The notes beneath the pieces are model-generated. The model worked only from the letters and a program-made list of their open reading frames with translations, had not been told where the DNA came from and searched no databases. This document shows positions 10,881 to 57,336 of a stretch of 64,000 nt of DNA, one piece after another. The stretch covers positions 7,453-71,452 of the forward strand of contig JAGCEZ010000055.1 in assembly GCA_017650365.1 (NCBI GenBank). The letters run 5' to 3'. The translations under genes and the position numbers were made by a program. This stretch comes from Fibrobacterales bacterium. GTDB lineage: Bacteria > Fibrobacterota > Fibrobacteria > Fibrobacterales > CADBQJ01. The stretch's first letter is position 1. Each line of letters opens with the position of its first letter.

Positions 10881-10884
10881 GTTT

Positions 10885-30482: not shown

Positions 30483-33400
30483 CTAGACCGCGCCGCCCTT
30501 GGCCATGTTTTCGTAGAACGCGTAGCGCGCGTCCACTTCGGCCTGGAGCTCGTCGGCGAGCTTCTTGGCCACCTCGGGGTTGGAGCGGGTCAGCCGCTTG
30601 TAGCGGTTTTCCGTGTAGATGTATTCCGCCACGGGGATCGTGGGCTTCTTGCTGTCGAGGACAAGCGGGGCCTTGCCTTCGGCGGCGAGAGCCGGATTGT
30701 AGCGGAGCAGCGGCCAGTAGCCGGAATCGACCGCCATCTTCTGGTGGGCGAGCTGGCTGTTCAGGTCGAAGCCGTGGTTGATGCACGGGCAGTAGGCGAT
30801 GATCAGCGAAGGACCGTGGTGCGCCTCGGCTTCCTGGAACGTCTTGAGCGCCTGCGCGTCGTTGGCGCCGATCGCCACGCGGCCGACGTAGACGTTCTTG
30901 TAGCTCATGGCGATCAGCCCGAGGTCCTTCTTGCCCGCCCGCTTGCCGGCGCTCGCGAAGAGCGCGACCGCGCCGCGGTTGGTCGCCTTGGAGGCCTGCC
31001 CGCCGGTGTTCGAGTAGACTTCGGTGTCGAGCACGAGGATGTTCACGTCCTCGCCGGTCGCCATCACGTGGTCCAGCCCGCCGTAGCCGATGTCGTAGGC
31101 CCAGCCGTCGCCGCCCATAATCCAGACCGACTTCTTCACCAGGTAGTCGGCGTACTCGTCGCGCAGCGCGGCGGCCTTTTCGCAGTCGGCGCCCTTCAGG
31201 GCCTCCTTCAGCTTCGCGACGTTCTCGCGCTGGGCCTGGATGCCCGCTTCGTCGTCCTGGCTCTGGGTCTTGAGGGCTTCCACGAGGTCGGCCGGGAGCT
31301 TCTCGGCGCATTCGTCGAGAAGCGAGAGGGCCTGCGTCGCGTGCTTCGTGATCGCGAGGCGCATGCCCAGGCCGAACTCGGCGTTGTCTTCGAAGAGGCT
31401 GTTCGCCCAGGCCGGGCCGCGGCCCGCGCGGTCCTTCGCCCACGGGGTGGTGGGGAGGTTGCCGCCGTAGATCGAGGAGCAGCCGGTGGCGTTGGCGACC
31501 ACCATGCGGTCGCCGAAGAGCTGGCTCACCAGGCGCACGTAGGCGGTTTCGCCGCAGCCCGCGCACGAGCCGGAGAACTCGAACAGCGGTTCCAGCAGCA
31601 TCGCCTGCTTCACCACGTTCTTGTTCACCTTGGTGCGGTCGAACTCGGGCAGGTCGACGAAGAAGTCCCAGCACTTGCCTTCGCGGACCTTGATCGGTTC
31701 CTGCGGCACCATGTTGATCGCCTTCTTCTCCGGATCGGCCTTGTCCTTGCCGATGCAGGCCTGCGTGCAGACGCCGCAGCCGGTGCAGTCGTAGCTGGAG
31801 ACGGAGAGGACGAACGCGGGCTTGTCGGAGCCCTCGAGCTTGAAGCCCTTGGCGGGCGCGCTCTTGAAGCCCTCGGGGGCCTTCGCGAGGAGCGATTCGT
31901 CCACGACCTTCACGCGGATCGCCGCGTGCGGGCAGACCATCGCGCACTTGCCGCACTGGACGCAGGCGTCGGGGTTCCAGCTCGGGATCGCCAGCGCGAG
32001 GTCGCGCTTTTCGAACTTCGTCGTCCCGGTCGGGAAGACGCCGTCCACCGGCATCTTGGAGACGGGGAGCTTCTCGCCGTTGCCGCGGATGATCTCCGCG
32101 GTCACTTCGTTCACGAAGGCCGGGGCGTCGCCGTGGATCGGGGCGCGGAACTCCTCCTTGCTCGTGACGGCCGCGGGGACCTTCACCTCGTGGAGGTTGG
32201 CGAGCGAGGCGTCGATCGCGTCCCAGTTCTTCTGGACCACTTCCTGGCCCTTCTTCGCGTAGGTCTTCTCGGCGTACTTCTTGATGTACTTGATCGCGGT
32301 CTCCGCGTCGAGCACGTTGCCGAGCTTGCTGAAGAAGCAGGTCTGCATCACGGTGTTGATGCGGCGGCCCATGCCGGTCTTCTCGGCGACGGCGTAGGCG
32401 TCGATCACGAAGACCTTGAGCTGCTTTTCGACCATCGCGGCCTGCACCGGGCGGGGGAAGGTGTCCCAGACCGTCTCGGCGGAGTGCGGCGTGTTGATCA
32501 GCACGGTCGCGCCCTTCTTCGCGTACTTCAGCATGTCCACCGAGCCCAGGTGGGGCGTGTGGTGGATCGCCACGAAGTCGGCTTCGTTCTCGCCGATCAG
32601 GTAGGGGGCGTCGATGACGCTCTTGCCGAAGCGGAGGTGCGAGGTGGTCATCGAGCCGGACTTCTTCGAGTCGTACACGAAGTAGCCCTGCGCGTAGTTC
32701 TCGGTCTCGTTGCCGAGGATCTTGATGGAGTTCTTGTTCGCGCCGACGGTGCCGTCGGAGCCCAGGCCGAAGAACATGGCCTGGAAGAAGTCGCTCTCCA
32801 GCTTGAAGGAGGGGTCGACGGTCAGGCTGGTGCCGCAGACGTCGTCGTCGATGCCGACGGTGAAGCGGGACTTCGGAGCGTCCTTGGAGAGCTCGTCGAA
32901 GATCGCCTTGACCATCGCCGGGGTGAACTCCTTGGAGGAGAGGCCGTAGCGGCCGCCGATCATCTTCGGCATGGCCATGGCGCCGGACATCACGGCTTCG
33001 GAGACGGCGGTCAGCGCGTCCTGGAAGAGGGGTTCGCCGGCGGAGCCCGGTTCCTTCACGCGGTCGAGGACGGCGATCTTCTTCACCGTCTTCGGGAGCG
33101 CGGCCACGAAGGCCTCCATCGGGAAGGGGCGGTAGAGGCGGACGTTGACGAGGCCGACCTTTTCGCCCTTGGAGTTCAGGTACTTGACCGTGTCGCCGAT
33201 GGTGCAGGTCGAGGAGCCCATCGAGACGATCACGCGGTCGGCGTCCGGAGCGCCGACGTAGTCGACGATGTGGAACTGGCGGCCGGTGAAGCCGGCGACC
33301 TTGTCCATGTACTTCTGGACGATCCCGGGGACCTTCGCGTAGAAGGGGTTGACCGTCTCGCGGCCCTGGAAGTAGACGTCCGGGTTCTGCGCGGTGCCGC

Positions 33401-34046
33401 GCATGGTCGGGCGGTCGGGGGTCATCGCGCGTTCGCGGCAGGCCTTGACGTACTTGTCGTCGATCACGTCGCGGATGACGTTGTCGTCGAGCGCCTCGAT
33501 CTTCATCACCTCGTGCGAGGTGCGGAAGCCGTCGAAGAAGTGCATGAAGGGGACGCGGCTTTCGAGCGTGGCGGCGTGGGCCACGAGGGCGAGGTCCTGG
33601 CACTCCTGCACCGAGGAGGAGGCGAGCATCGCGAAGCCGGTCTGGCGGCAGGCCATCACGTCGGAGTGGTCGCCGAAGATGGAGAGGCCCTGCATGGCCA
33701 GGGCGCGGGCGGTGACGTGGAAGACCGTGGGGGTCAGCTCGCCGGCGATCTTGTACATGTTCGGGATCATCAGGAGCAGGCCCTGGGAGGCCGTGAAGGT
33801 CGTGGTGAGGGCCCCGGCCTGCAGCGCGCCGTGGACGGTGCCGGCGGCGCCGCCTTCGGACTGCATTTCGAACACGCGCGGCACCTGGCCCCAGATGTTC
33901 TTCTGCCCCGCGGCGCTCCAGTCGTCGGAGTGCTCCGCCATCGGGCTGGAGGGGGTGATGGGGTAGATGGCGATGACTTCGCTGAGCTTATGGGCGACGC
34001 GGGCCGTGGCCTCGTTGCCGTCCATGGCGACCATTTTCTTGGACAT
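30483..34046 (-). CDS. nifJ: Pyruvate:ferredoxin (flavodoxin) oxidoreductase, single-polypeptide NifJ/YdbK type
   Basis: 1187 aa. [38 protein letters not shown].., two 4Fe-4S motifs ([25 protein letters not shown]), TPP region [16 protein letters not shown]. Confidence 0.96.
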
Positions 34047-34114
34047 AATCTCTCCGGAAGACGTGAACCGGGAACGTCCGGCGGACGGAGGGCCCGCAGG
34101 GCGTTTGGACTGCC

Positions 34115-34122
34115 GAAATCTA
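34115..34122 (-). promoter_or_regulatory. -7 box TAGATTTC for PFOR
   Basis: Minus-strand TTAGATTTCGG, 68 nt upstream of ATG 34046. Same octamer as upstream of both GH18 genes. Confidence 0.5.
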
Positions 34123-34197
34123 ATTTTTCCTCTTCCCGGGAACCCGCCCTCCCCCGACTTTTGCGATTTTCCCCTAGTTTTTCCCTCGTTTCCCGAG

Positions 34198-34205
34198 TAT
34201 CTTTA
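34198..34205 (+). promoter_or_regulatory. Candidate -7 box TATCTTTA for the nuo operon
   Basis: 53 nt before the nuoA ATG. An alternative TAGTTTTT lies at 34175-34182. Confidence 0.35.
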
Positions 34206-34258
34206 TTCTAAAATTGCGCCCGACATTGGCAAATGGCCTTTTCCCGACCGGAAGGTTT

Positions 34259-34642
34259 ATGTCTTCTTACGCGATTTTGGCATTTTTCCTCTTTCTGGGA
34301 GCCGTGCTCGCGTGGGGAGCCATGCTCACGGGCCACCTCCTCTCCCCCAAAACGCCCCGAACCCCCTTCCAGCGGGAAGCCTACGAGTGCGGAAACTCCA
34401 CGATCGGCCCCACCCGCGTCCGCTTCCGCGTCGGCTACGTCTTCTTCGCGCTGCTCTTCCTGGTCTTCGACATCGAGACCCTCCTGCTCTTCCCCGCCGT
34501 CTCCGCGCTCTCCGCGTCGCTCCGCGGCGAAGAGACCGGGATCGCCCCCCTGCTGGCCGCGGGCGAGGTGCTGCTCTTCGTCGCCGTCCTCTCGTTCGGG
34601 CTCGTCTGGGCCTGGCGGAAAGGAGCCCTGAAATGGGACTGA
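34259..34642 (+). CDS. nuoA: NADH-quinone oxidoreductase subunit A
   Basis: [38 protein letters not shown] 34259 is preceded by GGAAGG. The track ORF starts at an upstream TTG. Confidence 0.85.
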
Positions 34643-35898
34643 TGGAGAACGTGCCGAAGGTCCTCGACCCGCTTCCCGGCGGAAGCCGCCTGGCCGACGC
34701 CGTGGACTACGTGGTCAACTGGGCCCGCTCCCGCTCCATCTGGCCGCTCACCTTCGGCACCTCCTGCTGCGCGATCGAGATGATGGCCGCCTCCATGGCC
34801 CGCTACGACATCTCCCGGTTCGGCTCCGAGGTCTTCCGCGCCTCCCCGCGCCAGGCCGACCTCTTCATCGTGGCCGGGACGATCGTGGAGAAGATGGCCG
34901 AGCCGCTGGTCCGCCTCTACGAGCAGATGCCCGGCCCGAAGTGGGTCATCGCGATGGGCTCCTGCACGATCTCCGGCGGCCCTTTTTATTATGACAACTA
35001 CTCCGTCGTGAAGGGCGTCGACCGGCTGATCCCGGTCGACGTCTTCGTTCCCGGCTGCCCGCCCCGCCCCGAAGCGCTGCTGAACGGGCTGGTCCTCCTG
35101 CAGGAGAAGATCCGGAAGGAGACGCTCCGGAACCCCCGCCGCCCGGGCGAACCGCTCTCCGCGCCCGCCGAGGACCGCTGGGCCAGGGCCAAGGAGGCCT
35201 GGGAGGAGCTCGAGCGGATCAAGGACGAGCAGATGGCGGAGGCCCGCGCGAAGTTCGCGGCCGAGCACCCGGACTACAAGCCCCCGAAGCCGCCGCGCGC
35301 GGAGAAGCCCGCCTTCCCCGAGGTCGCGCGCGAACCCGCGCCGCACGCCGGCTGGAACGCCCGCGCGGTCGCCGATGCCGTCCACGCCCGCTTCCCCGAA
35401 CTGAAGCTCTTCCGGCTGGGCGACGTCGCGCCCGAAGTCCTGGAGGCGCGGCCCGCGGACTGGATCCCCTCGTTCGAGGTCCCGTCCGGAAAGCTGCTCG
35501 AAGTCGCGCGCTGGCTCAAGGACGGCGAGCTGAAGATGGACTTCCCGCTCCTCCTCACCTCGGTGGACCGCCTGGACCGCTTCGAGCTCGTGGCGCAGCT
35601 GATGAACTCGAGCACGTCGGCGCGCGTGGAGCTCCGCGTCCCGGTCGAGAAGATCTTCCCCGAAGGCGGAAGCTACGCCGCCGGGGAGAAGAACCAGAAG
35701 TACGGCGCGACGGCCCCGTCGCTCGTCCCCGTCTGGCCCGGCATGGGCTGGCACGAACGCGAGATCTACGACCTGATGGGGATCCGCTTCGAGGGGAACC
35801 CCGACATGCGCCGCATCTTCCTGGAGGAGGATTTCCCCGGACATCCCCTCCGCAAGGACTTCGACATGCCCGGACGGGCGATCCCGAGGCACGCATGA
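34633..35898 (+). CDS. nuoBC: Fused NuoB-NuoC subunit with an about 78-aa charged/Pro-rich linker
   Basis: NuoB part: [34 protein letters not shown] (N2 cluster Cys residues). Linker approx 35119-35352. NuoC part: ..[46 protein letters not shown]. One uninterrupted frame of 421 aa. Confidence 0.88.
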
Positions 35899-37049
35899 CC
35901 GCGCGGACGCGACAGACCCTCCCCCCGGGCTTCCTGCTTCCCGTCCGCGACGGGGAGACCGACGAGTTCTACCTCAACCTCGGCCCGCAGCACCCCTCCA
36001 CGCACGGCGCGCTGCGCGTCGTGGTCCGGCTCGACGGCGAGACGATCCGCGAAGTGGTTCCGCGCCTCGGCTACATCCACCGCGGGATCGAGTACCAGGC
36101 CGAGCGCGACAACGTCCTGCAGTTCGTCCACTTCGCCGACCGGTTCGACTACCTCACCGCGCTCCAGAACGAGCACGCCGTCTGCCTGGCGGCCGAGAAG
36201 GCGCTGGGGATCGGCGTCCCCGAACGGGGCGAATGGATCCGCGTCGTCGCGGACGAGCTGACCCGCATCTCCTCGCACCTGATCTTCCTCGGCTCCTTCG
36301 GCACCGACCTCGGCGGCACGACGACGTTCCTCTACGCCTTCAAGATGCGCGAAGCCGTCACGCAGCTCTTCGACGAGCTCTGCGGCGCGCGGCTGACGAC
36401 GAACTTCCTGCGCCCCGGCGGCTGCGCGCGCGACCTGCCCGAAGGCTTCGTCCAGAAGACGCGGGCGGCGCTCGAAACGGTGAAGCGCGGCATGGACGAG
36501 TGGGACGTCTTCCTCTCGGGCAACGTGATCTTCCAGGAGCGGACGCGCGGCGTCGGGATCCTCCCCGCGGACCGCGCGGTCGCGCTCGGCTGCTCGGGCC
36601 CCGTGCTCCGCGGCTCCGGCGTGGAGTTCGACCTGCGGAAGAAGGAGCCCTATTCCCTCTACTCCAAGTTCGACTTCGACGTCCCCGTCGGGAGCGTCGG
36701 CGACTGCTGGGACCGCTACGCCGTGCGCGTCGAGGAGATCCGGCAGAGCGCGCGCATCCTCGAACAGGCGCTCGACGACGTTCCCGAAGGGCCGTGGCGC
36801 TCGAAGGAGAAGGTCTCCTGGCGCCTGGACGAGGGCTCCTGGTGGAGCGAGGTCGAGACCGCCAAGGGGATCCTGGGCGTCCAGCTCGAATCGCAGGGGA
36901 AGAGCGACAAGCCCTGGCGGATCAAGGTCCGCTCGCCGAGCTTCTCCAACCTCATGGCGCTCGACGAGATGTGCCGCGGACAGAAGGTCGCCGACCTCGT
37001 CGCGATCCTCGGGTCGATCGACCCCGTCATTCCGGAGGTGGACCGGTGA
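35895..37049 (+). CDS. nuoD: NADH-quinone oxidoreductase subunit D
   Basis: ..[25 protein letters not shown].. ATGA overlap with the nuoBC stop. Confidence 0.93.
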
Positions 37050-38143
37050 ACGCGCTGGACCTCTCCGTCAACCACCCCGTCGGCGACTTCGTCCGCGAAG
37101 TCCTCTTCCCGAACTGCCCGGACCTCGCGTGGGCGGCCAACGGCCTAATCGCCGCCGTCGCGCTGGTCCTCTTCCCGGTCTTCCTCTCCGCGCCGTTCCT
37201 GATCTGGATGGAGCGCAAGGTCTGCGCCCACATGCAGGCGCGGCTCGGCCCGATGCGCCACGGCCCGCACGGCGCGTTCCAGACGATCGCGGACGTGATG
37301 AAGCTGCTCTTCAAGGAGATCGCCCTTCCCGGGAAGATCGACCGTCTCCCCTACCTCCTCGCGCCGGCGATCCCGCTCACCGCCTCGTTCCTCTCGCTCG
37401 CCGTGATTCCGTGGGACCACGACCTGCAGGTCGCCGACCCGGAGCAGGGGATCCTCTACCTCCTCGCCGTCGGCGCGCTCGGGATCCTCGGGATCCTCGT
37501 CGGCGCCTGGGCCTCCAACAGCAAGTTCGCGCTCCTGGGCGCCATGCGCGCCGGCGCGCAGATGCTCTCCTACGAGGTCTCGCTCGGGATCCTGATGCTG
37601 CTGGTCGCGCTCCTTTCCGGCGAAAGCTCGCTGCGCGAGATCGTCCTCTCGCAGCAGGGGACCGCGCTGGACTGGTGGATCTTCAAGGCGCCGGTCGTCG
37701 GGTTCCTCGCCTTCGTCCTCTACCTCGTCTCCTCCACCGCCGAGCTCAACCGCGGCCCGTTCGACCTCGTGGAGGCCGAGCAGGAGCTGACCGCGGGCTA
37801 CCAGACCGAATACTCCGGCATGGGCTTCGCGATGTTCTATCTCGCCGAGTACGTCAACATGGTGATCCAGGCCGCGCTCGTCTCGACCTTCTTCCTCGGC
37901 GGCTTCCTCCCCCTGCAGATCGGGATCGCGCCCGTCGACGGGATCCTCGCGGCCGCGCCCGGAATCGTCTGGATGGTCGCGAAGATCCTCCTGGTCGTCT
38001 TCGTCTACATGTGGTTCCGCTGGAGCTTCCCGCGCCCGCGCATCGACCAGCTGCTCGCGCTGGAGTGGAAGACCCTCGTCCCGGCGAACCTCGTTCTCTT
38101 CGCGCTCGGCGTCCTGCTCGTGTCGCAAGGATGGATACTGTAA
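37046..38143 (+). CDS. nuoH: NADH-quinone oxidoreductase subunit H
   Basis: ..FLIWMERKVCAHMQARLGPMRHGPHGAFQTIADVMKLLFKE.. GTG start in a GTGA overlap with the nuoD stop. Confidence 0.92.
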   Translation: MNALDLSVNHPVGDFVREVLFPNCPDLAWAANGLIAAVALVLFPVFLSAPFLIWMERKVCAHMQARLGPMRHGPHGAFQTIADVMKLLFKEIALPGKIDRLPYLLAPAIPLTASFLSLAVIPWDHDLQVADPEQGILYLLAVGALGILGILVGAWASNSKFALLGAMRAGAQMLSYEVSLGILMLLVALLSGESSLREIVLSQQGTALDWWIFKAPVVGFLAFVLYLVSSTAELNRGPFDLVEAEQELTAGYQTEYSGMGFAMFYLAEYVNMVIQAALVSTFFLGGFLPLQIGIAPVDGILAAAPGIVWMVAKILLVVFVYMWFRWSFPRPRIDQLLALEWKTLVPANLVLFALGVLLVSQGWIL

Positions 38144-38616
38144 TGGCGAAAATCGTCGTCTCCAGGCCTCCGGAAGACGGGCGGATCCGCAGGATCGCGC
38201 GCGGGATCCTCTCCCTGGCCAAGGGGATGGGGGTGACGATGGGCTACTTCCTCCGCCCCTCGCGCGTCGTCACGGAACAGTACCCCGAGAACCGGAAAAC
38301 GCTCAAGATGACCGAACGTTTCCGCGGGAACCTGGAGATGGTCCACGACGAGAACGGCGAGCACGACTGCATCGCCTGCGGGATGTGCGAACGCGCCTGC
38401 CCCAACGCCTCCATCTCGGTGCTTCCCACCAAGAGCCTCGCCGGGAAGAAGGTCCTCGGGCAGTACCTCTGGCGCATGGACTCGTGCACGCTCTGCGGGC
38501 TCTGCGTGGAGGCCTGCCCCACGAACGCGCTGCGGATGGGACGCGAATTCGAGAACGCGACGGACGACAGGAAGACGCTCGTCCGCGTCCTCAACCGGAA
38601 GGAGGGCCGCTCGTGA
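38143..38616 (+). CDS. nuoI: NADH-quinone oxidoreductase subunit I (2x[4Fe-4S])
   Basis: CIACGMCERACP and CTLCGLCVEACP. The ATG overlaps the nuoH TAA by 1 nt. Confidence 0.9.
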   Translation: MAKIVVSRPPEDGRIRRIARGILSLAKGMGVTMGYFLRPSRVVTEQYPENRKTLKMTERFRGNLEMVHDENGEHDCIACGMCERACPNASISVLPTKSLAGKKVLGQYLWRMDSCTLCGLCVEACPTNALRMGREFENATDDRKTLVRVLNRKEGRS

Positions 38617-39158
38617 ACGCGGATCCCGTTTTCCTCGCGGTCGCCGCCGCGATGGTCGCAGGCGCGCTGGGAACCGCGCTGTGCAAGAACGTCCTGCACG
38701 CGGCGCTCTCGCTCGTCCTCTGCTTCTTCGCGACCGCGATCCTCTACCTGCTGCTCCACGCGGAGTTCAACGCCCTCGCGCAGACCATGGTCTACGTCGG
38801 CGGAATCCTGGTCTTCATGGTCTTCGCGATCCTGATGACCTCGCGTCTGGGCGAGAAGGACCTGGAATCCGGGGCGGGGCGGCGCGCGGCCGCCTTGCTC
38901 GTCTCCGGCGCCTTCCTCTTCGCCGTCGTCCAGGCCGTCTCCGGCGCCGAGGAGCTCCTCTCCCTGCGCAAGGCGGCCAACGAGGGCTTCGCCTCGTTCG
39001 GCGACGTCGGGCGCCTGCTCCTCTCCCCCGCCGAGGGCGGCCAGCTGGTCGCCTTCGAACTCGCGACCGCGCTCCTGCTGGCCGCGCTCGTCGGGGTCGT
39101 CGCCGTGGCGCGCCGCCCCGCCCCGAAATCCGATCCCGAAGAGGAGGAACGCCGATGA
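38613..39158 (+). CDS. nuoJ: NADH-quinone oxidoreductase subunit J
   Basis: GTGA overlap with the nuoI stop. ..HAEFNALAQTMVYVGGILVFMVFAILM.. membrane protein, in the conserved operon position. Confidence 0.85.
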   Translation: MNADPVFLAVAAAMVAGALGTALCKNVLHAALSLVLCFFATAILYLLLHAEFNALAQTMVYVGGILVFMVFAILMTSRLGEKDLESGAGRRAAALLVSGAFLFAVVQAVSGAEELLSLRKAANEGFASFGDVGRLLLSPAEGGQLVAFELATALLLAALVGVVAVARRPAPKSDPEEEERR

Positions 39159-39469
39159 CCGGATTCTCCCTCTCCGCGGTCCTGGTCCTCGCGGCCCTGC
39201 TCTTCGCCGTCGGGCTCTACGGCCTGCTGAGCCGCCGGAACCTGATCGGCATGCTGCTCTGCGTCGAGCTGATGCTCAACGCCGCGAACGTCAACCTGGT
39301 CGCCTTCGCGCGCTTCGAAAGCGGAGACCCCGCCTCCGGCGCGCTCCTCTCCGTCTTCTCCATCGCGATCGCCGGCGCCGAGATGGCCGTGGCGCTCGCG
39401 ATCCTGGTCGCCATGCACCGCCGGCGCCGCACGCTCGACGCCGACGAACTCAACGAGCTGCAGGGGTAG
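39155..39469 (+). CDS. nuoK: NADH-quinone oxidoreductase subunit K
   Basis: 104 aa. ..NLIGMLLCVELMLNAANVNLVAF.. ATGA overlap with the nuoJ stop. Confidence 0.9.
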   Translation: MTGFSLSAVLVLAALLFAVGLYGLLSRRNLIGMLLCVELMLNAANVNLVAFARFESGDPASGALLSVFSIAIAGAEMAVALAILVAMHRRRRTLDADELNELQG

Positions 39470-39472
39470 GAA

Positions 39473-41455
39473 ATGGAAAACGCCGCCGCCCTCCCCTTCG
39501 CCCTGCGCCACGTCTGGATCGTCCTGGCGCTGCCGCTGCTCTCCTTCGTCCTGAACGGGCTCTGGACCTGCCGGAAGAAGGAGTCGTGGAGCGGCCCGAT
39601 TTCGACCGTCCTGGCCGGCGCCAACTGGATCTTCGGCACGCTCTGCGTCTGGCAGTGGTGGAAGGCCTCCGCGGGGCTCCCGGGCCGTTCGATGGTCCCG
39701 TGGTCGTTCGACTGGCTGACGTTCGGGCAGCTCGGGACGTTCCGCCCGCTGACCGCCGGGATCGGCGCCCTGCTCGACCCGATCTCCGCGATGATGGTCT
39801 TCGTCGTCGCCACGATCGCCTTCTTCGTCCACGTCTACTCCATCGGCTACATGCGCGAAGACCCGGCCCGCGGCCGCTTCTTCCCGCTGCTCTCGCTCTT
39901 CGCCTTCGCGATGCTCGGCCTGGTCCTGGCGACCAACGTCTTCCAGATGTACGTCTTCTGGGAGCTCGTCGGCGTCTCCTCCTACCAGCTGATCGGCTTC
40001 TGGTACCACAAGCCCTCGGCGGTCGCCGCGTCGAAGAAGGCGTTCATCGTCACCCGCTTCGCCGACGCCTTCTTCCTGCTGGGAATCGTGGTCCTCGCCT
40101 GGGTCGTCCGCAGCTTCGACTTCTCCGTCCTCAACTCCGCCGCCGCGGCCGAAGCGCTCCTGCGCCCGGTCTCCTTCGGCTTCTTCGAGGCGCCCGCCCT
40201 GCCGGTCGCCGCAGCGCTGGTCTTCGCCGGCGGCTGGGGCAAGTCGGCGATGTTCCCGCTCCACATCTGGCTGCCCGACGCGATGGAGGGCCCCACGCCG
40301 GTCTCCTCCATCATCCACTCCGCGACGATGGTCGTCGCCGGCGTCTTCCTCTCCGCGCGGATGTTCCCGCTCTTCTCCGCGGTCCCCTCCGTCATGGGGC
40401 TGATCGCCTTCGTCGGGGCCTTCACCGCCGCCTTCGCGGCCGTCGTCGCGATCGCGCAGCAGGACATCAAGCGCATCCTCGCCTTCTCCACGCTCTCGCA
40501 GATCGGCTACATGCTCTTCGCGCTCGGCGCGGCGGCCGTCTGCGGCGGCGGGGTCCTCGTCGCCGGATACTCCGCGTCGATGTTCCACGTCTTCACGCAC
40601 GCCTTCTTCAAGTGCCTGCTCTTCCTGGTCGCCGGGTCGGTGATCCACGTCGCGGGGAACAACATGCTCTCGTGCATGGGCGGCCTCCGGACGAAGATGC
40701 CGCTCACCTACCTCTCCGCGCTCGCCGCGACGCTCGCCATCTCCGGGATCCCGCCCTTCTCCGGGTTCTGGTCGAAGGACGAGATCGTCGCCTCCGCGTT
40801 CCAGGCCGGGCACCCGGTCCTCGGGACGGTCGGGCTGCTCGTGGGGGCGCTCACCGCCTTCTACATGTTCCGCTTCTTCTTCCTGATCTTCCACGGCGAA
40901 GCGCGGAGCGACCGTTCGCACGCGCACGAGGACCGCTGGATGACCTTCCCGATCGTCTGCCTCGCGATCCCCTCGCTCTGCGCCGGCATCCTCGCGAAGC
41001 CGCTGTTCGAAAGCGCGTTCAGGCCGCGGCTCCTGCCCTGGGTCCAGGCCGTCGAGGGGACGCACGCGGCGTTCGTCCCCGTCGCCGCGACGCTGCTCGC
41101 GCTCCTGGGCGCGGTCGCGGCCTGGTTCCTCTACTGCGGACCGAAGGCGGACGTCGCCCGCGCGCTCGACGCGGAGCACCGCCCCGCCTGGTACCGGCTG
41201 GTCTACCGCAAGTTCTGCATCGACGAGATCTGGCTCTTCGTCGTGCGGAGGATCCTCTTCGAACGCGTCGCCGCGCCGATCAAGTGGTTCGACCGCAAGA
41301 TCGTGGACGGGGCGATGAACCTCGTCGGCAAGTCCGTCGTCCTGGCGGGCTGGTGCGTGAACGCCCTCCAGAACGGCAGCCTGGCGACCGCGCTCGCCTT
41401 CGCCGCCGGCGGCTTCATCCTCGTCTGGCTCCTGGCCGGAAACCTCTTCCCGTAG
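39473..41455 (+). CDS. nuoL: NADH-quinone oxidoreductase subunit L
   Basis: 660 aa antiporter-like subunit. ..YVFWELVGVSSYQLIGFWYHKPSA.., ..WLPDAMEGPTPVSSIIHSATMVVAGVF.. Confidence 0.92.
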   Translation: MENAAALPFALRHVWIVLALPLLSFVLNGLWTCRKKESWSGPISTVLAGANWIFGTLCVWQWWKASAGLPGRSMVPWSFDWLTFGQLGTFRPLTAGIGALLDPISAMMVFVVATIAFFVHVYSIGYMREDPARGRFFPLLSLFAFAMLGLVLATNVFQMYVFWELVGVSSYQLIGFWYHKPSAVAASKKAFIVTRFADAFFLLGIVVLAWVVRSFDFSVLNSAAAAEALLRPVSFGFFEAPALPVAAALVFAGGWGKSAMFPLHIWLPDAMEGPTPVSSIIHSATMVVAGVFLSARMFPLFSAVPSVMGLIAFVGAFTAAFAAVVAIAQQDIKRILAFSTLSQIGYMLFALGAAAVCGGGVLVAGYSASMFHVFTHAFFKCLLFLVAGSVIHVAGNNMLSCMGGLRTKMPLTYLSALAATLAISGIPPFSGFWSKDEIVASAFQAGHPVLGTVGLLVGALTAFYMFRFFFLIFHGEARSDRSHAHEDRWMTFPIVCLAIPSLCAGILAKPLFESAFRPRLLPWVQAVEGTHAAFVPVAATLLALLGAVAAWFLYCGPKADVARALDAEHRPAWYRLVYRKFCIDEIWLFVVRRILFERVAAPIKWFDRKIVDGAMNLVGKSVVLAGWCVNALQNGSLATALAFAAGGFILVWLLAGNLFP

Positions 41456-41465
41456 CGAGGCGCCG

Positions 41466-42986
41466 ATGTCGAGTCCCCTTCTCCTCTCCGCAATCTGGGT
41501 CGTGCCGCTCCTCGCGGCCTTCGCCACGCTCTTCCTGAAGCGCGACGACCACCTCGCGGTCAAGCTGGTCCACGCCGTCTGCCACGGCGGCAACCTCCTC
41601 CTGGCGATCAGCCTCCTCGTCTCCTTCCTCGCGGAGACGGAGGGCGCGCTCCCGGCGTCGGGCACCGTCACGCAGCTCCATTTCGCGATGGACAGGATCT
41701 GGATCCCCGCGCTCAACATCCACTACAACGTCGGCGTGGACGGGCTCTCCATGCTGATGATCCTCCTGACCGCCATGATCATCTTCGCGGGCGTCTTCGC
41801 GAGCTGGGGGATCAGGGACCGCGCGCGGGAGTTCTTCATTCTCCTGGACCTGCTGGTGGCCGGCGTCTACGGCACCTTCATGAGCTTCGACCTCTTCGCG
41901 CTCTTCCTCTTCTACGAAGTGGCCGTGCTCCCGATGTACCTGCTGATCGGCGTCTGGGGGACGGGGCGGAAGGAATACTCCGCGATGAAGCTGACGCTGA
42001 TGCTCGTCGCGGGCTCGGCGCTCCTGATGGGCGGGATCCTCGCGCTCTACTTCGGGAGCCACCTGCAGACGTTCGACCTGAACGTCCTGTCGCAGTACCC
42101 CTTCCCGCGCTCCTTCCAGCGGCTCTTCTTCCCGATCCTCTTCTTCGGGTTCGGCGTCCTCTCCGCGATCTTCCCCTTCCACACCTGGTCGCCCGACGGC
42201 CACGCGAGCGCGCCCACCGCGGTCTCGATGCTCCACGCCGGCGTGCTGATGAAGCTCGGCGGCTACGGCATCCTCCGCGTGGCGATGTACGTCCTGCCCG
42301 AGGGGGCGACGGAATGGTTCCCCTGGCTGATCCTCCCGATCGCGGTGAACGTCGCCTACGGCCCCTTCGTCGCCCTGCGCCAGCGCGACCTGAAGTACAT
42401 CACCGCCTACTCCTCGGTCTCGCACCTCGGCCTGGTGCTGCTCGGGCTCGCGGTCTGCACCTTCACCGGCATCAAGGGCTCCGCGATGCAGATGATCTCG
42501 CACGGCCTCCTCACCGGGCTCTTCTTCGCGCTGATCGGGATGATCTACGGCCGCACGCACACGCGCAACGTGGACGAGATGGGCGGCCTGATGAAGAGGA
42601 TGCCGTTCCTGGGCGTCTCGTTCGTGCTGGCGGGCTTCGCGGGGCTCGGGCTTCCGGGCCTCTCCGGCTTCGTGGCCGAATCGACGATCTTCCTCGGCGC
42701 CTTCGAGAACCCCTCCGCGGTCGTCCGCGGCTGCACGGTCGTCGCGATCCTGAGCATCGTCACCACCGCGGTCTACATCCTCCGCGCGGCCAACCGCATG
42801 CTCCACGGCCCGCTGCCCGAAAGGTTCGGGACGCTGACCGACGCGGTCTGGAACGAACGGCTCGCCGTGATCGTCCTCCTGATCGGCCTCTTCGGCATGG
42901 GCCTCTTCCCGGGCTGGATCGCCGACGCGCTCGACGGTTCCGTCGCCCCCCTGTTCAACAACCTCGTCCGGGCGGTGGTTCCATGA
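41466..42986 (+). CDS. nuoM: NADH-quinone oxidoreductase subunit M
   Basis: 506 aa. ..FPFHTWSPDGHASAPTAVSMLHAGVLMKLGGYG.. Confidence 0.92.
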   Translation: MSSPLLLSAIWVVPLLAAFATLFLKRDDHLAVKLVHAVCHGGNLLLAISLLVSFLAETEGALPASGTVTQLHFAMDRIWIPALNIHYNVGVDGLSMLMILLTAMIIFAGVFASWGIRDRAREFFILLDLLVAGVYGTFMSFDLFALFLFYEVAVLPMYLLIGVWGTGRKEYSAMKLTLMLVAGSALLMGGILALYFGSHLQTFDLNVLSQYPFPRSFQRLFFPILFFGFGVLSAIFPFHTWSPDGHASAPTAVSMLHAGVLMKLGGYGILRVAMYVLPEGATEWFPWLILPIAVNVAYGPFVALRQRDLKYITAYSSVSHLGLVLLGLAVCTFTGIKGSAMQMISHGLLTGLFFALIGMIYGRTHTRNVDEMGGLMKRMPFLGVSFVLAGFAGLGLPGLSGFVAESTIFLGAFENPSAVVRGCTVVAILSIVTTAVYILRAANRMLHGPLPERFGTLTDAVWNERLAVIVLLIGLFGMGLFPGWIADALDGSVAPLFNNLVRAVVP

Positions 42987-44416
42987 CGCTGCCGAGCATC
43001 CTTCCCGACGTCGCGCTCCTGGCGCTCGCCGCCCTCCTGCTTCTGGCCGGGCTGGCCGGGAACGAAAAGTCCGAACGGCTCGCCTTCCCCGCGGCGATCG
43101 GCGGGACCGCGCTCCTCTTCCTCCTCTCGCTCCTCGTCCAGCCCTCCCCGGAGAAGTTCCTCGGCTGCTGGAGCGTCACCCCGGCCGGGCTCCACTTCCG
43201 CCAGCTCTTCCTCTTCGCGACGCTCCTGGTCGAGGCGTTCGCGCGCTCCTACTTCCGCCGCGGCGGCGACGGGAAGGGACCGCTGGAGCGCGGGAGCGAG
43301 TTCCTCGCGACGCTGCACCTGGTCCTGCTCGGCGCGTTCGCCGTCGTCTCGGTCGACAACCTGCTCGCGCTCTTCGTCGGGCTTGAGCTCGCCACCATTC
43401 CGCTCTACTGCCTCGTCGCGTGGAGGGCGGGCGACCGCCGCGGGGGCGAGGCCGCCGTGAAGTACGTCGTCATGGGCGCCGGCGCCTCCTGCTTCGACCT
43501 CTTCTCCTTCTCCTACCTCTACGGCCTCGCCGGCTCGCTCGACTTCGGCGCGGTCGCCACGCGCGTCGCCTCCATCCAGGACGGCTCCGGCTCCTCGGGC
43601 CTGCTGCGCGTCGCCGTCGCGGCGCTCTTCGCGGGCGTCGGCTTCAAGCTGACGATCTTCCCCTTCCAGATGTGGGCCCCGGACGTCTACGAGGGGGCGC
43701 CCACGCCGGTCACGCTCCTCCTCTCCGTCGTCTCCAAGTCGGCCGCGGTCGCCTTCCTGCTCGTCCTGATGCACGGCCCGCTCGCCCCCGCGCTCGCCAA
43801 GACGCAGGAGCTGGTCCTCCTCCTCTCCGCGCTGACGATGACCGTCGGCAACCTCGGCGCCATCCACCAGCGCCACCTGCGCCGCTTCATGGCCTACTCC
43901 TCCGTCGCGCAGGCCGGCTTCATCCTCGCCGCGCTCGTCGGGCCGGCGGACCGCGCGACGGGCGCCGCGCTCTTCTACCTCTTCGTCTACGCCGCGACCA
44001 ACACGCTCGCCTTCGCCGTCTTCGCCGTCGCGGGCGAGGAGCGCGGCGAGACCTTCGAATGCCTGCGCGGCCTCTCCCGGCGCTCGCCCGCGCTCGCCGG
44101 GATCCTCGCGGTCTGCATGTTCTCGCTCGCGGGAATCCCCCCGGTCGCCGGGTTCGTCGGGAAGTTCTTCCTCTTCTCCTCCGCGGCCTCCGCGGGGCAT
44201 TACCTCTTCGTCGTCTTCGCCGCGCTCAACGGCACGCTCTCGCTCTACTACTACCTGCACGTGCTCCGCGAGGCCTACATCGTCCCCGAAGAGGAGGGGA
44301 AGGAAAACGGGGCGCTCCGCGTCGACCCGCTCCAGAAAGTCCTGCTCGGGTGCCTCCTCCTCGCCGTGGTCCTCCTGGGCCTCCTGCCGCAGCTCTCCGA
44401 CTTCCTCTCGCGCTAG
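42983..44416 (+). CDS. nuoN: NADH-quinone oxidoreductase subunit N
   Basis: ATGA overlap with the nuoM stop. ..FPFQMWAPDVYEGAPTPVTLLLSVVSKSAAV.. Confidence 0.9.
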   Translation: MTLPSILPDVALLALAALLLLAGLAGNEKSERLAFPAAIGGTALLFLLSLLVQPSPEKFLGCWSVTPAGLHFRQLFLFATLLVEAFARSYFRRGGDGKGPLERGSEFLATLHLVLLGAFAVVSVDNLLALFVGLELATIPLYCLVAWRAGDRRGGEAAVKYVVMGAGASCFDLFSFSYLYGLAGSLDFGAVATRVASIQDGSGSSGLLRVAVAALFAGVGFKLTIFPFQMWAPDVYEGAPTPVTLLLSVVSKSAAVAFLLVLMHGPLAPALAKTQELVLLLSALTMTVGNLGAIHQRHLRRFMAYSSVAQAGFILAALVGPADRATGAALFYLFVYAATNTLAFAVFAVAGEERGETFECLRGLSRRSPALAGILAVCMFSLAGIPPVAGFVGKFFLFSSAASAGHYLFVVFAALNGTLSLYYYLHVLREAYIVPEEEGKENGALRVDPLQKVLLGCLLLAVVLLGLLPQLSDFLSR

Positions 44417-45335: not shown

Positions 45336-46523
45336 ATGACCGCTCGCAATTCGCTTCTCTCCCTCGCCGCCGCCCTCGCGCTCGGCTGCCTCGTCTCCTG
45401 CGGAGACTCCACGGGCGGATCCGGCGGATCGAACGGTTCGGGCAGCGTCTCCGGCGTCAAAAGCAGCATCAAGGTCGTGGGCGACACCATCCGCTACACC
45501 GAAGAGCGGACCGTCAAGATCTACTCCGTCGACGAAGAGGCGCGCGTCATGCTCGCCAGATCGCCCCAGGAGAACTACTGCGTCCGCGAAGACGGAGTCC
45601 TGTCGTGGGAGACCGTGAAGGAACTCCCCGACACGATGACGCTCTCATACAGCTTCGGCACGATCCCCGGCGAACTCGTCGGGTTCCTGGAGCAGAATGG
45701 CTACGACGTCGAAGGCCGGGTCGTGCTTTACCTGTTCGAAGACGAATACTACGCGAACATCTTCCTGGGGAGAGACTCCTCCACCATCTTCGGCGAATGG
45801 CAGGAGACCCCCTGCTACGTTGATCTGGACTACTACGGCGGCGGCGTCGGTTGCGACGACACCGTCGTCGAAGGGACCTTGAAGATCGGGAATGGCTCGG
45901 TGACGGAAAAGAGCACGACCAGCGTCTCCAAGAACTACTGGATGTACGACAAGCCCTTCCGCTCCGCCTTCATGGGCTCGCTCTACGAACGGCTGGCCAC
46001 GGGCCGCGCCTGGCCCCAGCTCTACCCGCACGAGATGTTTACGGAAGACTCCGTCGAAGTCCTGAAGGTCATGGGCGACTACATGATTGCGGTCAAGGAA
46101 CAGACGGCGAAGTCGCAGACGTTCGAAATCGACGGAAAGAGCTACACGGCCAGGATTCTCAAGAGTTCCGCCGACTACCGCGGCTACGCCGGCGGCCTGG
46201 ACTACTCCGTCGACATGGAAGTCGCCGACGAATCCGAGACCTGCCGGATCACCGTCCGCTCGATTTCCAAAGTCGACGGGGAATACTGCGCCGACAAGTA
46301 TATGGACAACTACGAATGGGACTCCGAGTGGGACTACGACGACAACGAGTTCGAATACGCGGACGCGATTCTCTGGAGCAACGCCGAAGAACACGGCGCC
46401 TGTCTGAAGCGCATCGCCGCCCGCGGGAGCGACGCCGCGCCCGCCGTCGCCAAGGCCGCCCGCAGGACCGCCGCGAACAAGATCCAGATCCGCCCCGCCA
46501 AGAAACGGCTCTTCGCCCGCTAG
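45336..46523 (+). CDS. Lipoprotein of unknown family (paralog A)
   Basis: MTARNSLLSLAAALALGCLVSC/GDS lipobox, Gly/Ser linker. Colinear with the downstream paralog (shared GDTIRY.EER, LGRDSS..FGEW, TPCY, EKSQTF, GGLDYS, ETCRI, GNEFEYAD, AC.KRIAA). AGAGG SD before ATG 45336. Confidence 0.7.
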   Translation: MTARNSLLSLAAALALGCLVSCGDSTGGSGGSNGSGSVSGVKSSIKVVGDTIRYTEERTVKIYSVDEEARVMLARSPQENYCVREDGVLSWETVKELPDTMTLSYSFGTIPGELVGFLEQNGYDVEGRVVLYLFEDEYYANIFLGRDSSTIFGEWQETPCYVDLDYYGGGVGCDDTVVEGTLKIGNGSVTEKSTTSVSKNYWMYDKPFRSAFMGSLYERLATGRAWPQLYPHEMFTEDSVEVLKVMGDYMIAVKEQTAKSQTFEIDGKSYTARILKSSADYRGYAGGLDYSVDMEVADESETCRITVRSISKVDGEYCADKYMDNYEWDSEWDYDDNEFEYADAILWSNAEEHGACLKRIAARGSDAAPAVAKAARRTAANKIQIRPAKKRLFAR

Positions 46524-46553
46524 CCGGGCGCGCCGACCACGTTCGTTTCGGAG

Positions 46554-47687
46554 ATGTCGATGAACATGCGCAGACTTTCCCTCTCCCTCGCCGGCGCGCT
46601 CGCGCTCGGCGCCCTCGTCTCCTGCGGCGACTCCGGCAGCGGCTCCTCCTCCGGCGAAGGCGGATCCGGCGGCGGTTCGGGCGCCTCCTCCGGAGACGTC
46701 AAGCGGTCCGTCGAGATCAAAGGCGACACCATCCGCTACGCCGAGGAGCGCGGCGCGAAGGTCTTCGCGCACGACGAGTCCGCGCGCGTCCTCTCGGTCG
46801 CCTCGCCCGTCGACGAGTACTGCGTCCTCGAAGGCGCCTCCGTCTCCTGGAAGGCCGTGCGGGAATATCCCGACACGACGACGTTCTCCTGGTCCTTCGG
46901 CGCGGTCACGACCGAGATGGCCGGCATCCTCAAGGGGCTGGGCTACGACGTCGACGGCAAGGTCCTCCTCGTCCTGGAGGAAGCCGGGTTCGAGGGCCAG
47001 GGCGACATCCTGCTGGGCCGCGACTCCTCCTCCGTCTTCGGCGAATGGGCCTACACGCCCTGCTACACGGACGCAAGCGGCGGCTTCCGCTGCTCCAACC
47101 GCCACGTCGAGGGAAGCCTGAAGATCGGCAAGAGCTCCATGACGCGGAAGGAGTCCTACGACGTCGCCAAGGGCGACTACCTCTACGACGACCCCTTCGG
47201 GTCGCGCTTCATGAGCCTTCTCTACGACAACCTCGCCGGCGGCAACTACTTCGCCGAGCTCGAGGCGGGCGACCTCTTCCTGGAGGACACCGGGGCGGTC
47301 GCGCGCAGCGTCGCGAACGACGGCGTCGAGATCACGGCGCGGGCGGAGAAGTCGCAGACGTTCAAGATCGGGCTGAAGACCTACACGGTCGAAGTCCTCA
47401 AGAGCTCCGGCGAGTTCCGGAAGGCGACCGGCGGGCTCGACTACTCCGCGGTCGTCGAAGTCTCCGACGGATCAGAGACCTGCCGGATCGACATCCGCTC
47501 GGTCACCGCGGTCGGCGAAGACCTCTGCGCCGGCAAGAACATGGATGGTTTCAAGTGGAGCCGCGGCGAGGACGTCGACGGGAACGAGTTCGAATACGCG
47601 GACGGAATCGTCCTGGGCGACGCCGCCGCGCACGAAGCCTGCATGAAGCGCATCGCCGCGATCGGTCCCGACCCGGCCGGGCGCTAG
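46554..47687 (+). CDS. Lipoprotein of unknown family (paralog B)
   Basis: ..RRLSLSLAGALALGALVSC/GDS lipobox. Same conserved blocks as paralog A. Start ambiguous among ATG 46554/46560/46566, with a GGAG at 46550-46553 favouring 46560. Confidence 0.7.
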   Translation: MSMNMRRLSLSLAGALALGALVSCGDSGSGSSSGEGGSGGGSGASSGDVKRSVEIKGDTIRYAEERGAKVFAHDESARVLSVASPVDEYCVLEGASVSWKAVREYPDTTTFSWSFGAVTTEMAGILKGLGYDVDGKVLLVLEEAGFEGQGDILLGRDSSSVFGEWAYTPCYTDASGGFRCSNRHVEGSLKIGKSSMTRKESYDVAKGDYLYDDPFGSRFMSLLYDNLAGGNYFAELEAGDLFLEDTGAVARSVANDGVEITARAEKSQTFKIGLKTYTVEVLKSSGEFRKATGGLDYSAVVEVSDGSETCRIDIRSVTAVGEDLCAGKNMDGFKWSRGEDVDGNEFEYADGIVLGDAAAHEACMKRIAAIGPDPAGR

Positions 47688-53166: not shown

Positions 53167-54009
53167 ATGAGCAGCCAGCACCGTTTTCCGCGTTTCCGTC
53201 CCGTTTTCGGCGTTTTGGCCCTTCTCTGCGCCTTCGCCTGGGGAGCGGAACCCGCTTCGGAACCCGTTTCCGGGGCCGCGGACATCGACGGCGGCTCCAC
53301 GAATCCGGCCGCCGCCCAGGCCGAAAAGAAGTCCTTCCGCACCTATCTCTTCGAGGATCTCCTCCCCGTTTCGCCCGAAGAGTACATCTCCAAGGGGCGG
53401 ATCACGGCGGGCACCCAGGTCTCGCTGATGCAGGCGACCATCAGCGACCTCGACATCTCGCTGGCCGACATCTACGAACTGGACGGCTACATCCTGAACG
53501 TGGAGGCCTTCGGCGCCTGGTTCTTCCGCGACGCCGTGGCCGTGGGGCTCCGCGCCGGCTACAGCCGCACCGAATACACCTTCGACTTCGAGGTGAACGA
53601 GGACCTGACCGACCTGGCGCAGGACCGCGACTTCGTCAGCAACGGCTTCTCGCTCACCCCCTACCTGCGCTACTACCTCAAGCTCTTCCCCACGAGCGCG
53701 TTCTACTTCTTCAGCGAAATCGACCTGACCTACGAATACTCCACCGGTCTTTCCGCGGTGGACGACGGGGAGAACCTCGACAAGACGCGCACCACGACGC
53801 ACGTCATCGAGGCGGGCGTCAACCCCGGCGTGGCGATCTTCATCCTGAAGGGGTTCGCCTTCGAGACCTCCGTCGGCCTGCTGGGCCTGAGCACCGGCAT
53901 CCGCGAAATCGAGACCAACGGGACGTCGAAGAGCGAGATCGTCACGAACATCATCAACTTCAGGATCAACCTGCTGGCGCTCAACTTCTCGCTGGCCTAC
54001 TACTTCTAG
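53167..54009 (+). CDS. Small outer-membrane beta-barrel protein
   Basis: Signal peptide ..VFGVLALLCAFAWG/AE. Alternating amphipathic strands. C-terminal ..NFSLAYYF with a terminal aromatic residue, typical of OMP barrels. Confidence 0.65.
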   Translation: MSSQHRFPRFRPVFGVLALLCAFAWGAEPASEPVSGAADIDGGSTNPAAAQAEKKSFRTYLFEDLLPVSPEEYISKGRITAGTQVSLMQATISDLDISLADIYELDGYILNVEAFGAWFFRDAVAVGLRAGYSRTEYTFDFEVNEDLTDLAQDRDFVSNGFSLTPYLRYYLKLFPTSAFYFFSEIDLTYEYSTGLSAVDDGENLDKTRTTTHVIEAGVNPGVAIFILKGFAFETSVGLLGLSTGIREIETNGTSKSEIVTNIINFRINLLALNFSLAYYF

Positions 54010-54021
54010 GGAGGGGGAACG

Positions 54022-55314: not shown

Positions 55315-55316
55315 CC

Positions 55317-57200: not shown

Positions 57201-57294
57201 CCGGACCCGGCGGGGACTTTCCGAAATCCTTTTTTCGGCCTACTCGAACGGCTCCGCAAGCCCGGTTTTACAAAGCCCGGGCCCGCGCAAGGGG

Positions 57295-57302
57295 TAGATT
57301 TC
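57295..57302 (+). promoter_or_regulatory. -7 box TAGATTTC for GH18 paralog 1
   Basis: GGGGTAGATTTCGG, 34 nt before the ATG. Conserved with the paralog 2 upstream region. Confidence 0.5.
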
Positions 57303-57336
57303 GGTCAAAGACCTCCCGCAGCCCAAGGGGACAGAC

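Follow-up and report, generated by a model that had tools for sequence, protein, structure and literature searches.

Does the position of a pyruvate:ferredoxin oxidoreductase (PFOR) gene beside a complex I operon tell us where that complex obtains its electrons? The question is raised by a 64-kb stretch of DNA (64,000 nucleotides; positions 7,453 to 71,452 of contig JAGCEZ010000055.1, assembly GCA_017650365.1, from a Fibrobacterales bacterium), hereafter called the window, in which a PFOR gene and a nuo operon without the genes of the NADH module (nuoE, nuoF and nuoG) point away from a shared spacer. A first-pass annotation of this DNA had proposed that the two form a chain running from PFOR through ferredoxin and Nuo to quinone. 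We found that the anatomy behind this proposal is right and that a ferredoxin-to-quinone role is the most reasonable one for the complex; however, the chain had already been published, and the pairing of the two genes is weak evidence for it. Our preferred reading, which we hold with somewhat better than even confidence, is that this "headless" Nuo pumps protons while it oxidizes a low-potential carrier and reduces menaquinone, and that PFOR is one supplier of the reduced carrier.

The gene layout was derived from a listing of open reading frames (ORFs) together with a gene call based on the G+C content of third codon positions (GC3), and families were assigned with Pfam and NCBIfam. A single plus-strand operon covers all 11 subunits (A, B, C, D, H, I, J, K, L, M and N), each with a Pfam match. 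It begins with nuoA (34259-34642, 127 aa, PF00507), a 127-aa gene likewise in three relatives (L001, L085 and L087), followed by a nuoB-nuoC fusion (34633-35898, 421 aa, PF01058 and PF00329), nuoD (35895-37049, 384 aa, PF00346; NF004739 score 430, cut-off 360) and nuoH (37046-38143, 365 aa, PF00146, E = 2.8e-106). The product of nuoI (38143-38616, 157 aa, 2x[4Fe-4S]) belongs to Fer4 families and matches the subunit I/TYKY chains of complex I, and the gene is followed by nuoJ (38613-39158, 181 aa, PF00499) and nuoK (39155-39469, 104 aa, PF00420). The antiporter-like nuoL (39473-41455, 660 aa, PF00361 and PF00662; NF005141 score 573, cut-off 556), nuoM (41466-42986, 506 aa, PF00361; TIGR01972 score 427, cut-off 264) and nuoN (42983-44416, 477 aa, PF00361; TIGR01770 score 347, cut-off 333) complete the operon, and a convergent metallophosphoesterase gene begins 13 nt past nuoN. 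The junctions between successive genes are −10, −4, −4, −1, −4, −4, +3, +10 and −4 nt, so that both the gene content and the tight coupling read at first pass were borne out.

The 4-nt overlap of nuoD with nuoH lies exactly where nuoEFG is found in 14-subunit operons, and the operon is therefore complete as an 11-gene unit. When NuoE, NuoF and NuoG of a 14-subunit operon (L066, checked with Pfam) were used as tblastn probes, they were not found in the 64-kb window (best E = 0.22), in agreement with the first reading of the operon; matches in 25-27 comparison loci served as the positive control. Neither were they found within ±10 kb in 11 Fibrobacterota comparison loci (L001-L008 and L085-L087).

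On the opposite side of the spacer, the minus-strand PFOR gene (30483-34046) encodes a protein of the nifJ type. Its domains I-III, EKR, ferredoxin and TPP domains are joined in a single polypeptide (Pfam POR_N, PFOR_II, POR, EKR, two copies of Fer4, and TPP_enzyme_C), and it scored 1785.6 bits against the TIGR02176 equivalog model (cut-off 911) over profile positions 1-1166 of 1167. The ferredoxin-like domain inside the protein is of the 2x[4Fe-4S] kind. The length of 1187 aa and the 212-bp extent of the spacer (34047-34258) agreed with those given by the first-pass annotation.

We next consider whether the redox and quinone sites of the complex are intact. The NuoB cysteines of cluster N2 (C45, C46, C111 and C142) were invariant among 46 homologues, and NuoI has two CxxCxxCxxxC motifs. 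NuoD was aligned end to end with Thermus thermophilus Nqo4 and cyanobacterial NdhH, and kept the quinone-site residues, namely the His of HPSTHG and the Tyr of GYIH (GY(I/L)H), the equivalents of His38 and Tyr87 of Nqo4. The cysteine ligands of a NiFe center are missing from NuoD, whose C-terminus reads DPVIPEVDR and has no Cys. Its scores were 330 bits with Nqo4 and 314 bits with NdhH, compared with 127-194 bits for the Mbh, Mrp-type and formate hydrogenlyase (FHL) subunits of the PDB. With its quinone-site residues and Fe-S ligands preserved, the Nuo of the window is, as judged from its residues, a genuine quinone-reducing, antiporter-module-bearing headless 11-subunit complex I without the NADH module.

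Several other identities were tried and set aside. A group 4 membrane-bound [NiFe] hydrogenase (Mbh, Ech or FHL) was rejected on the missing NiFe cysteines and on the scores (Mbh 180 and FHL 127 versus 330 bits for Nqo4). An F420H2 dehydrogenase (Fpo) was rejected as well: the FpoD, H, I and L models remained far under their cut-offs (FpoD 345 versus 600), the Nuo models passed theirs, and no FpoF-like gene was found in the window. For a Campylobacter-type complex I, the overlap of nuoD and nuoH leaves no space, and there was no homologue of NuoG in the window. A cyanobacterial-type NDH-1 would carry extra ORFs (NdhS, NdhV, NdhO), and none was seen in or flanking the operon. A further kind of layout, neither the 11-subunit nor the classical 14-subunit type, was seen in Desulfobacterota (L049, L051, L058 and L062), where nuoD is directly followed by nuoH and yet NuoE/F/G-like genes occur in the same 20 kb.

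The fused NuoB-C protein deserves a description of its own. NuoB occupies about residues 14-165 and NuoC about residues 280-415, and they are connected by a linker of ~115 aa (~165-280) in which W190, E194, K197, R205, F208 and P213 are conserved. The fusion was present in every Fibrobacterota locus examined (including L001-L008 and L085-L087) and in 0 of ~150 loci of other phyla with a readable NuoB ORF, where NuoB is a separate protein of ~160-270 aa; among the loci sampled, the fusion is thus to all appearances a Fibrobacterota-specific trait. AlphaFold2 modeled the linker as a long single helix over residues 182-211 that gives way to a coil rich in Pro and Lys, a mediocre model with a predicted local distance difference test score (pLDDT) of 67, and no sequence in the PDB matched the linker. 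The idea that the linker is a donor-docking domain was set aside, as nothing ties it to ferredoxin binding.

Both units are ordinary parts of energy metabolism, and PFOR converts pyruvate to acetyl-CoA and CO2 and reduces ferredoxin or flavodoxin. In the electron path that we favor, it would be one of the enzymes filling the donor pool. With NuoG absent, electrons would enter at exposed clusters of NuoI, pass to cluster N2 in NuoB and reach quinone at NuoD/NuoH in a reaction coupled to ion pumping. Quinol oxidation could then fall to a fumarate reductase, as in Fibrobacter, or to another terminal reductase. The PFOR gene and nuo would be transcribed divergently from two separate promoters of the type of the Fibrobacteres-Chlorobi-Bacteroidetes (FCB) superphylum. 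Four elements of this scheme are inferred: which donor is used, which way the electrons flow, which acceptor ends the chain, and whether PFOR and nuo are co-regulated. The divergent pairing is mildly suggestive, in that it would be consistent with a coupling of PFOR to Nuo, and it is neither required for the function nor a proof of it.

A chain from PFOR through ferredoxin and headless Nuo to menaquinone is not new, as it was proposed earlier for Prevotella copri, Phocaeicola vulgatus, Melioribacter and Desulfitobacterium. For P. copri, the same proposal is attributed to Franke & Deppenmeier 2018 by the papers that cite it (PMC10542786, PMC6560451), and for P. vulgatus it is stated that the headless NDH can oxidize the reduced ferredoxin derived from PFOR (PMC11405475). 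In Melioribacter, reduced ferredoxin was suggested as the donor (PMC3534657). The 11-subunit enzyme of D. hafniense is rotenone-sensitive and is needed on pyruvate and lactate, and a model built on rotenone experiments and proteomics has ferredoxins shuttling the electrons, with PFOR among the candidate sources (PMC11238625). In Bacteroides fragilis, deletion of nuo left NADH:quinone activity unchanged, and Nuo was drawn with an unknown donor X delivering electrons to menaquinone and fumarate reductase (PMC7002350). Our literature search found no paper stating a link between Nuo and ferredoxin for Fibrobacter. The genome paper on F. succinogenes reports that hydrogenase is absent and that a membrane fumarate reductase linked to menaquinone is present (PMC3079729), which leaves room for Nuo as a sink of ferredoxin or flavodoxin electrons.

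How far does the pairing of PFOR with nuo reach within the lineage? It was kept in two relatives, whose NuoB-C proteins are 92% (L001) and 76% (L085) identical to that of the window. The synteny of L001 with the window ends ~80 nt after the PFOR stop codon (window 30401, L001 5768), where the window runs into a dcw cluster (mraZ, mraW, ftsL and a penicillin-binding protein, PBP) and L001 runs into genes for Fib_succ_major-domain proteins, and the PFOR-nuo pair is intact across this break. The 11-gene operon and the B-C fusion were conserved in all of these Fibrobacterota genomes and the PFOR pairing was not, so that no clade-wide conserved pair was found. The gene upstream of nuoA was MgtE at 68% NuoB-C identity, a CDP-alcohol phosphatidyltransferase at 58% and a PIN/antitoxin pair at 54%, and in a Fibrobacter metagenome-assembled genome (MAG) it was, for example, RelA/SpoT (L007). 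As far as these neighborhoods tell, the PFOR-nuo adjacency is a lineage-specific arrangement.

PFOR was far more conserved than NuoB-C in both relatives that keep the pair: its identity was 98% in L001, versus 92% for NuoB-C, and 97% over the N-terminal 124 aa in L085, versus 76%. This could reflect very strong purifying selection or a recent transfer of PFOR between the lineages of the window, L001 and L085.

The spacer, which we aligned with the same two relatives, contains both 5' untranslated regions and two back-to-back promoter-like elements. On the minus strand, the 8-mer TAGATTTC (34115-34122) resembles an FCB-type −7 promoter box and precedes the ATG of PFOR by 68 nt; it also precedes PFOR in L001 and L085. 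This agrees with the first-pass annotation, which had given PFOR a box of its own. On the plus strand, a candidate −7 box for nuo, TATCTTTA, lies at 34198-34205, 53 nt upstream of the nuoA ATG, and this putative promoter element is conserved as TATCTTTA in L001 and as TATTTTTA in L085. The box TAGATTTC occurs 3 times in the window, versus 0.3 expected, and always upstream of a correctly oriented gene. More generally, the −7 promoter element of Bacteroidota has the shape TAnnTTTN, a motif with 18 copies in the window (e.g., at 2100, 3843, 30315, 45296, 51219, 51236, 52850, 57295 and 58962); 13 of the copies fall within the ~2.9 kb (4.5%) of intergenic DNA, where almost all aim at a gene start 5-130 nt away. 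This distribution suggests that FCB-type promoters may be used in the organism of the window, a Fibrobacterota relative with a G+C content of 68%.

A sigma-70 promoter gave one weak match in the wrong direction and was dropped in favor of the FCB-type −7 motif because the latter is strongly concentrated in intergenic DNA. We also looked for a shared regulatory element or RNA in the spacer and rejected it: Rfam gave no riboswitch or known RNA there, and repeat analysis of the spacer found short repeats at the level of chance only, with no convincing shared operator. One inverted repeat of 16 nt spans the spacer (34042-34057, CCGGAGAGATTATGTC, versus 34248-34263, CCGGAAGGTTTATGTC); it probably represents the similar Shine-Dalgarno/ATG contexts of PFOR and nuoA in opposite orientation. 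The spacer most likely consists of two separate back-to-back promoters 75 nt apart, and co-regulation of PFOR and nuo is possible, not indicated, by this layout.

To see the pairing in a wider setting, we examined the surroundings of NuoB homologues in 80 loci from species-representative genomes and 80 from metagenomes; only loci whose upstream sequence reached 5 kb or more entered the counts, and PFOR was sought within 10 kb of nuo. PFOR was nearby in 3 of 38 headless loci (L022, L029 and L030) versus 0 of 25 EFG-containing loci, and so was KorA (3/38 versus 0/25). Either gene was present at 4/38 headless loci, the two sets overlapping in L029 and L030, which have both, and again at 0/25 EFG-containing loci. 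By a rough estimate, assuming one PFOR per ~4 Mb genome and a 20-kb neighborhood, ~0.2 PFOR would be expected by chance in 38 loci. The association of PFOR with headless nuo thus appears real-looking but rare in these neighborhoods.

In L022 (a Roseivirgaceae MAG, 4783-9962), short gaps separate PFOR, the gene for a 330-aa protein of the dihydroorotate dehydrogenase (DHO_dh) family and nuoA, which point the same way in this order, and a transcript joining PFOR to the headless nuo is conceivable. In two Flavobacteriaceae MAGs (L029, Salegentibacter, 2556-9968; L030, Mariniflexile, 630-8142), PFOR and a 116-aa 2x[4Fe-4S] ferredoxin lie on one strand, and korA and korB (a two-subunit 2-oxoacid:ferredoxin oxidoreductase) followed by nuoA-nuoN without EFG lie divergently on the other. 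The korAB-nuo junction is retained in the closest metagenomic relatives (L088-L090). The compact cluster was also seen in the related contigs L089 and L090, of which L090 has the ferredoxin and korAB and no PFOR within 10 kb. Directly upstream of the headless nuoA of a deltaproteobacterial MAG (L060, 7837-9313), there are a CdhD-like gene (CO dehydrogenase/acetyl-CoA synthase delta) and a 114-aa 2x[4Fe-4S] ferredoxin.

A number of observations weigh against the chain from PFOR to menaquinone. No PFOR was nearby in 35/38 headless loci, the contrast between headless and EFG-containing loci is too small for significance, and the matches come down to about two independent lineages besides that of the window. 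Within Fibrobacterota the adjacency was lost at 68%, 58%, 54% and 53% NuoB-C identity, being absent from L002-L004, L086, L087 and the Fibrobacter loci L005-L007. To our knowledge, there is no biochemical proof for any non-cyanobacterial headless complex, and the operon of the window encodes no donor-docking accessory subunit of the NdhS type. As for the partners of the chain, no ferredoxin, flavodoxin, fumarate reductase or menaquinone gene was found in the 64-kb window, nor any Rnf gene; ferredoxin and Rnf genes had been named at first pass as a check on the chain, and for the window this check came back empty. A six-frame search of the window for the Cys motifs of a stand-alone ferredoxin matched NuoI and PFOR only. 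Genes for NuoE, NuoF and NuoG might also lie outside the window. Finally, Zhang et al. (PMC10542786) described reduced ferredoxin in Prevotella as being handled by Rnf and left the role of the incomplete Nuo open.

The main rival to our reading is that the adjacency is neutral, left behind by rearrangement, with Nuo using another donor or pool and the ferredoxin reduced by PFOR being re-oxidized elsewhere (e.g., by Rnf or hydrogenase). We consider this explanation doubtful, though it has to be taken seriously. It fits with the upstream neighbor of nuoA being different in every more distant Fibrobacterota relative and with the scarcity of PFOR near headless nuo, and in Prevotella it is Rnf that balances reduced ferredoxin, the incomplete Nuo being unexplained (PMC10542786); moreover, Rnf and hydrogenases occur in other classes of Fibrobacterota (PMC4814513). 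However, the PFOR-nuo pair remained linked across the synteny break in L001, and genes for 2-oxoacid:ferredoxin oxidoreductases or ferredoxin adjoin headless nuo in at least 2 other lineages, when only the ~0.2 PFOR matches mentioned above would be expected in 38 loci. The lack of a hydrogenase in F. succinogenes also does not favor a separate outlet for the reduced ferredoxin. Compared with this rival, reverse operation, an NADH module encoded elsewhere and direct docking of PFOR are minor ones.

In principle, both PFOR and enzymes of the complex I type can work in either direction, and the two could in theory run backward, the proton-motive force driving electrons from quinol to ferredoxin so that PFOR (and KorAB in Flavobacteriaceae) acts as a synthase, with pyruvate formed for CO2 assimilation or anaplerosis. 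Besides this general reversibility, reverse operation of the 11-subunit enzyme has been discussed (PMC11238625), and the Flavobacteriaceae cluster joins to nuo PFOR and a 2-oxoglutarate-type oxidoreductase, which are both of the ferredoxin-dependent carboxylating enzymes of the reverse tricarboxylic acid cycle. Nevertheless, the organism of the window resembles a fermentative chitin degrader (with GH18 genes and Fib_succ_major neighbors), no autotrophy genes were seen in the window, and the forward direction is thermodynamically favored in sugar fermentation. We regard reverse operation as improbable.

A more ambitious version of the forward chain holds that the adjacency stands for physical as well as metabolic coupling: PFOR or a dedicated ferredoxin would dock on the NuoI face, making a proton-pumping pyruvate:menaquinone oxidoreductase. 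There is little chance, in our estimate, that this is so. If it were true, the sporadic clusters of PFOR, ferredoxin or KorAB with nuo in Bacteroidota would be further cases of a modular '2-oxoacid:quinone' entry into respiration. In the strictest form, PFOR alone docks on the headless complex and passes electrons from its internal ferredoxin domain to NuoI, a pyruvate:quinone oxidoreductase supercomplex that needs no soluble carrier. PFOR does bring its own 2x[4Fe-4S] domain, no soluble ferredoxin gene was seen in the window, the pair was kept across a rearrangement, and a 'docking platform' was conceived by Moparthi & Hagerhall, in the form in which they are quoted in PMC11238625. On the other hand, PFOR and nuo form two transcription units, most relatives with the same Nuo do not have them linked, and the Flavobacteriaceae loci L029 and L030, in which the linkage is richest, encode a separate small ferredoxin between PFOR and korAB-nuo, which points to a soluble carrier; direct docking is very improbable.

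That the complex is a normal NADH dehydrogenase whose nuoEFG is encoded elsewhere in the genome is hardly credible: split nuo clusters do exist, as in Melioribacter, whose ndh genes occupy three loci (PMC3534657), and our view was limited to 64 kb of the genome, but the seamless nuoD/nuoH overlap, the conservation of the 11-gene unit throughout the Fibrobacterota loci, whose ±10-kb surroundings are free of E, F and G, the lack of NADH:quinone activity in the orthologous type of B. fragilis (PMC7002350) and the fact that stand-alone 'nuoEFG' sets in such genomes proved to be formate dehydrogenase or hydrogenase modules (PMC11238625) all speak against it.

The remainder of the window gives some idea of the host. 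For NuoB-C, metagenomic near-copies are 99% and 92% identical, and the best matches from named organisms, which mark the host as a Fibrobacterota relative, are those of Fibrobacter and Hallerella (~53%), and that of "Ca. Fibrimonadales" is 47% identical. Besides PFOR and nuo, the window carries genes for GH18 chitinases, the dcw cluster (MraZ, MraW and PBP), DnaE and UvrA, and no hydrogenase gene was found in it. The GH18 genes, together with the Fib_succ_major neighbors, make the organism look like a degrader of polysaccharide (chitin) from a phylum of fermenters. A run of plus-strand genes at 53215-60882 resembles a chitin or glycan utilization locus, with a PCMD/DUF5018 protein and two GH18 proteins, and both of these GH18 genes are preceded by an identical TAGATTTC box (57295 and 58962). 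Large ORFs with coding-like GC3 and without a Pfam match (950, 625, 395 and 377 aa) were seen at 9490-12342 (minus), 3874-5751 (plus) and 45336-47687 (plus). The 660 nt upstream of the UvrA-like gene (60883-61542) contain no called gene, tRNA or Rfam match.

Complex I without EFG is widespread in anaerobes, occurring in Bacteroidota, Fibrobacterota, Chlorobiota and several Firmicutes and Chloroflexi, and the identity of its donor bears on the ATP yield of succinate and propionate formation in fermenters of the gut and rumen. The window adds one more lineage with the enzyme. The presence of PFOR, KorAB or ferredoxin beside headless nuo in a few independent lineages, and at 0/25 NADH-type operons, points in the same direction as the published hypothesis. 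The most useful by-products of the analysis are the Flavobacteriaceae layout and the NuoB-C fusion specific to Fibrobacterota; the former (PFOR and ferredoxin, with korAB and nuo divergent from them) may suit experiments better than the uncultured organism of the window.

How does the complex compare with known systems? Cyanobacterial and chloroplast NDH-1 likewise consists of 11 core subunits without NuoEFG, and there ferredoxin is the demonstrated donor; ferredoxin binding in the cyanobacterial enzyme, however, needs further subunits specific to oxygenic phototrophs (among them NdhS, V and O), whereas the operon of the window has no extra ORFs. Complex I of Campylobacter and Helicobacter shares the logic of the proposed chain, in that POR/OOR reduce a flavodoxin that feeds a complex I without NuoE and NuoF (Weerakoon & Olson 2008, as cited in PMC10542786 and PMC7002350). 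In the Campylobacter operon, however, NuoG is retained and two other genes stand in for nuoE and nuoF, while in the window nothing stands between nuoD and nuoH. Desulfitobacterium has the same 11-gene operon and the same model of feeding by PFOR and ferredoxin (PMC11238625), but it belongs to Firmicutes, and its PFOR and ferredoxins are not encoded next to nuo.

Closer to the window are the headless Nuo complexes of Bacteroidota (B. fragilis BF638R_0850-0841, Prevotella and Phocaeicola), which belong to the same FCB superphylum and have the same gene set, with D followed by H and no EFG, and the same style of −7 box. The role proposed for them is also the same, a non-NADH donor feeding a chain of menaquinone and fumarate reductase (PMC7002350, PMC6560451, PMC11405475). 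Bacteroides differs in fusing C and D, whereas the window fuses NuoB and NuoC through a 115-aa linker; furthermore, the host of the window has a G+C content of 68% and PFOR as the immediate divergent neighbor of nuo, and the Bacteroides arrangement is not so described. The operon of Fibrobacter and Hallerella is orthologous, with the same gene order and the same B-C fusion, and its subunits are ~40-60% identical to those of the window (most 50-57%, nuoA and nuoJ lower). Fibrobacter differs in its G+C content and lineage and in having a gene other than PFOR upstream.

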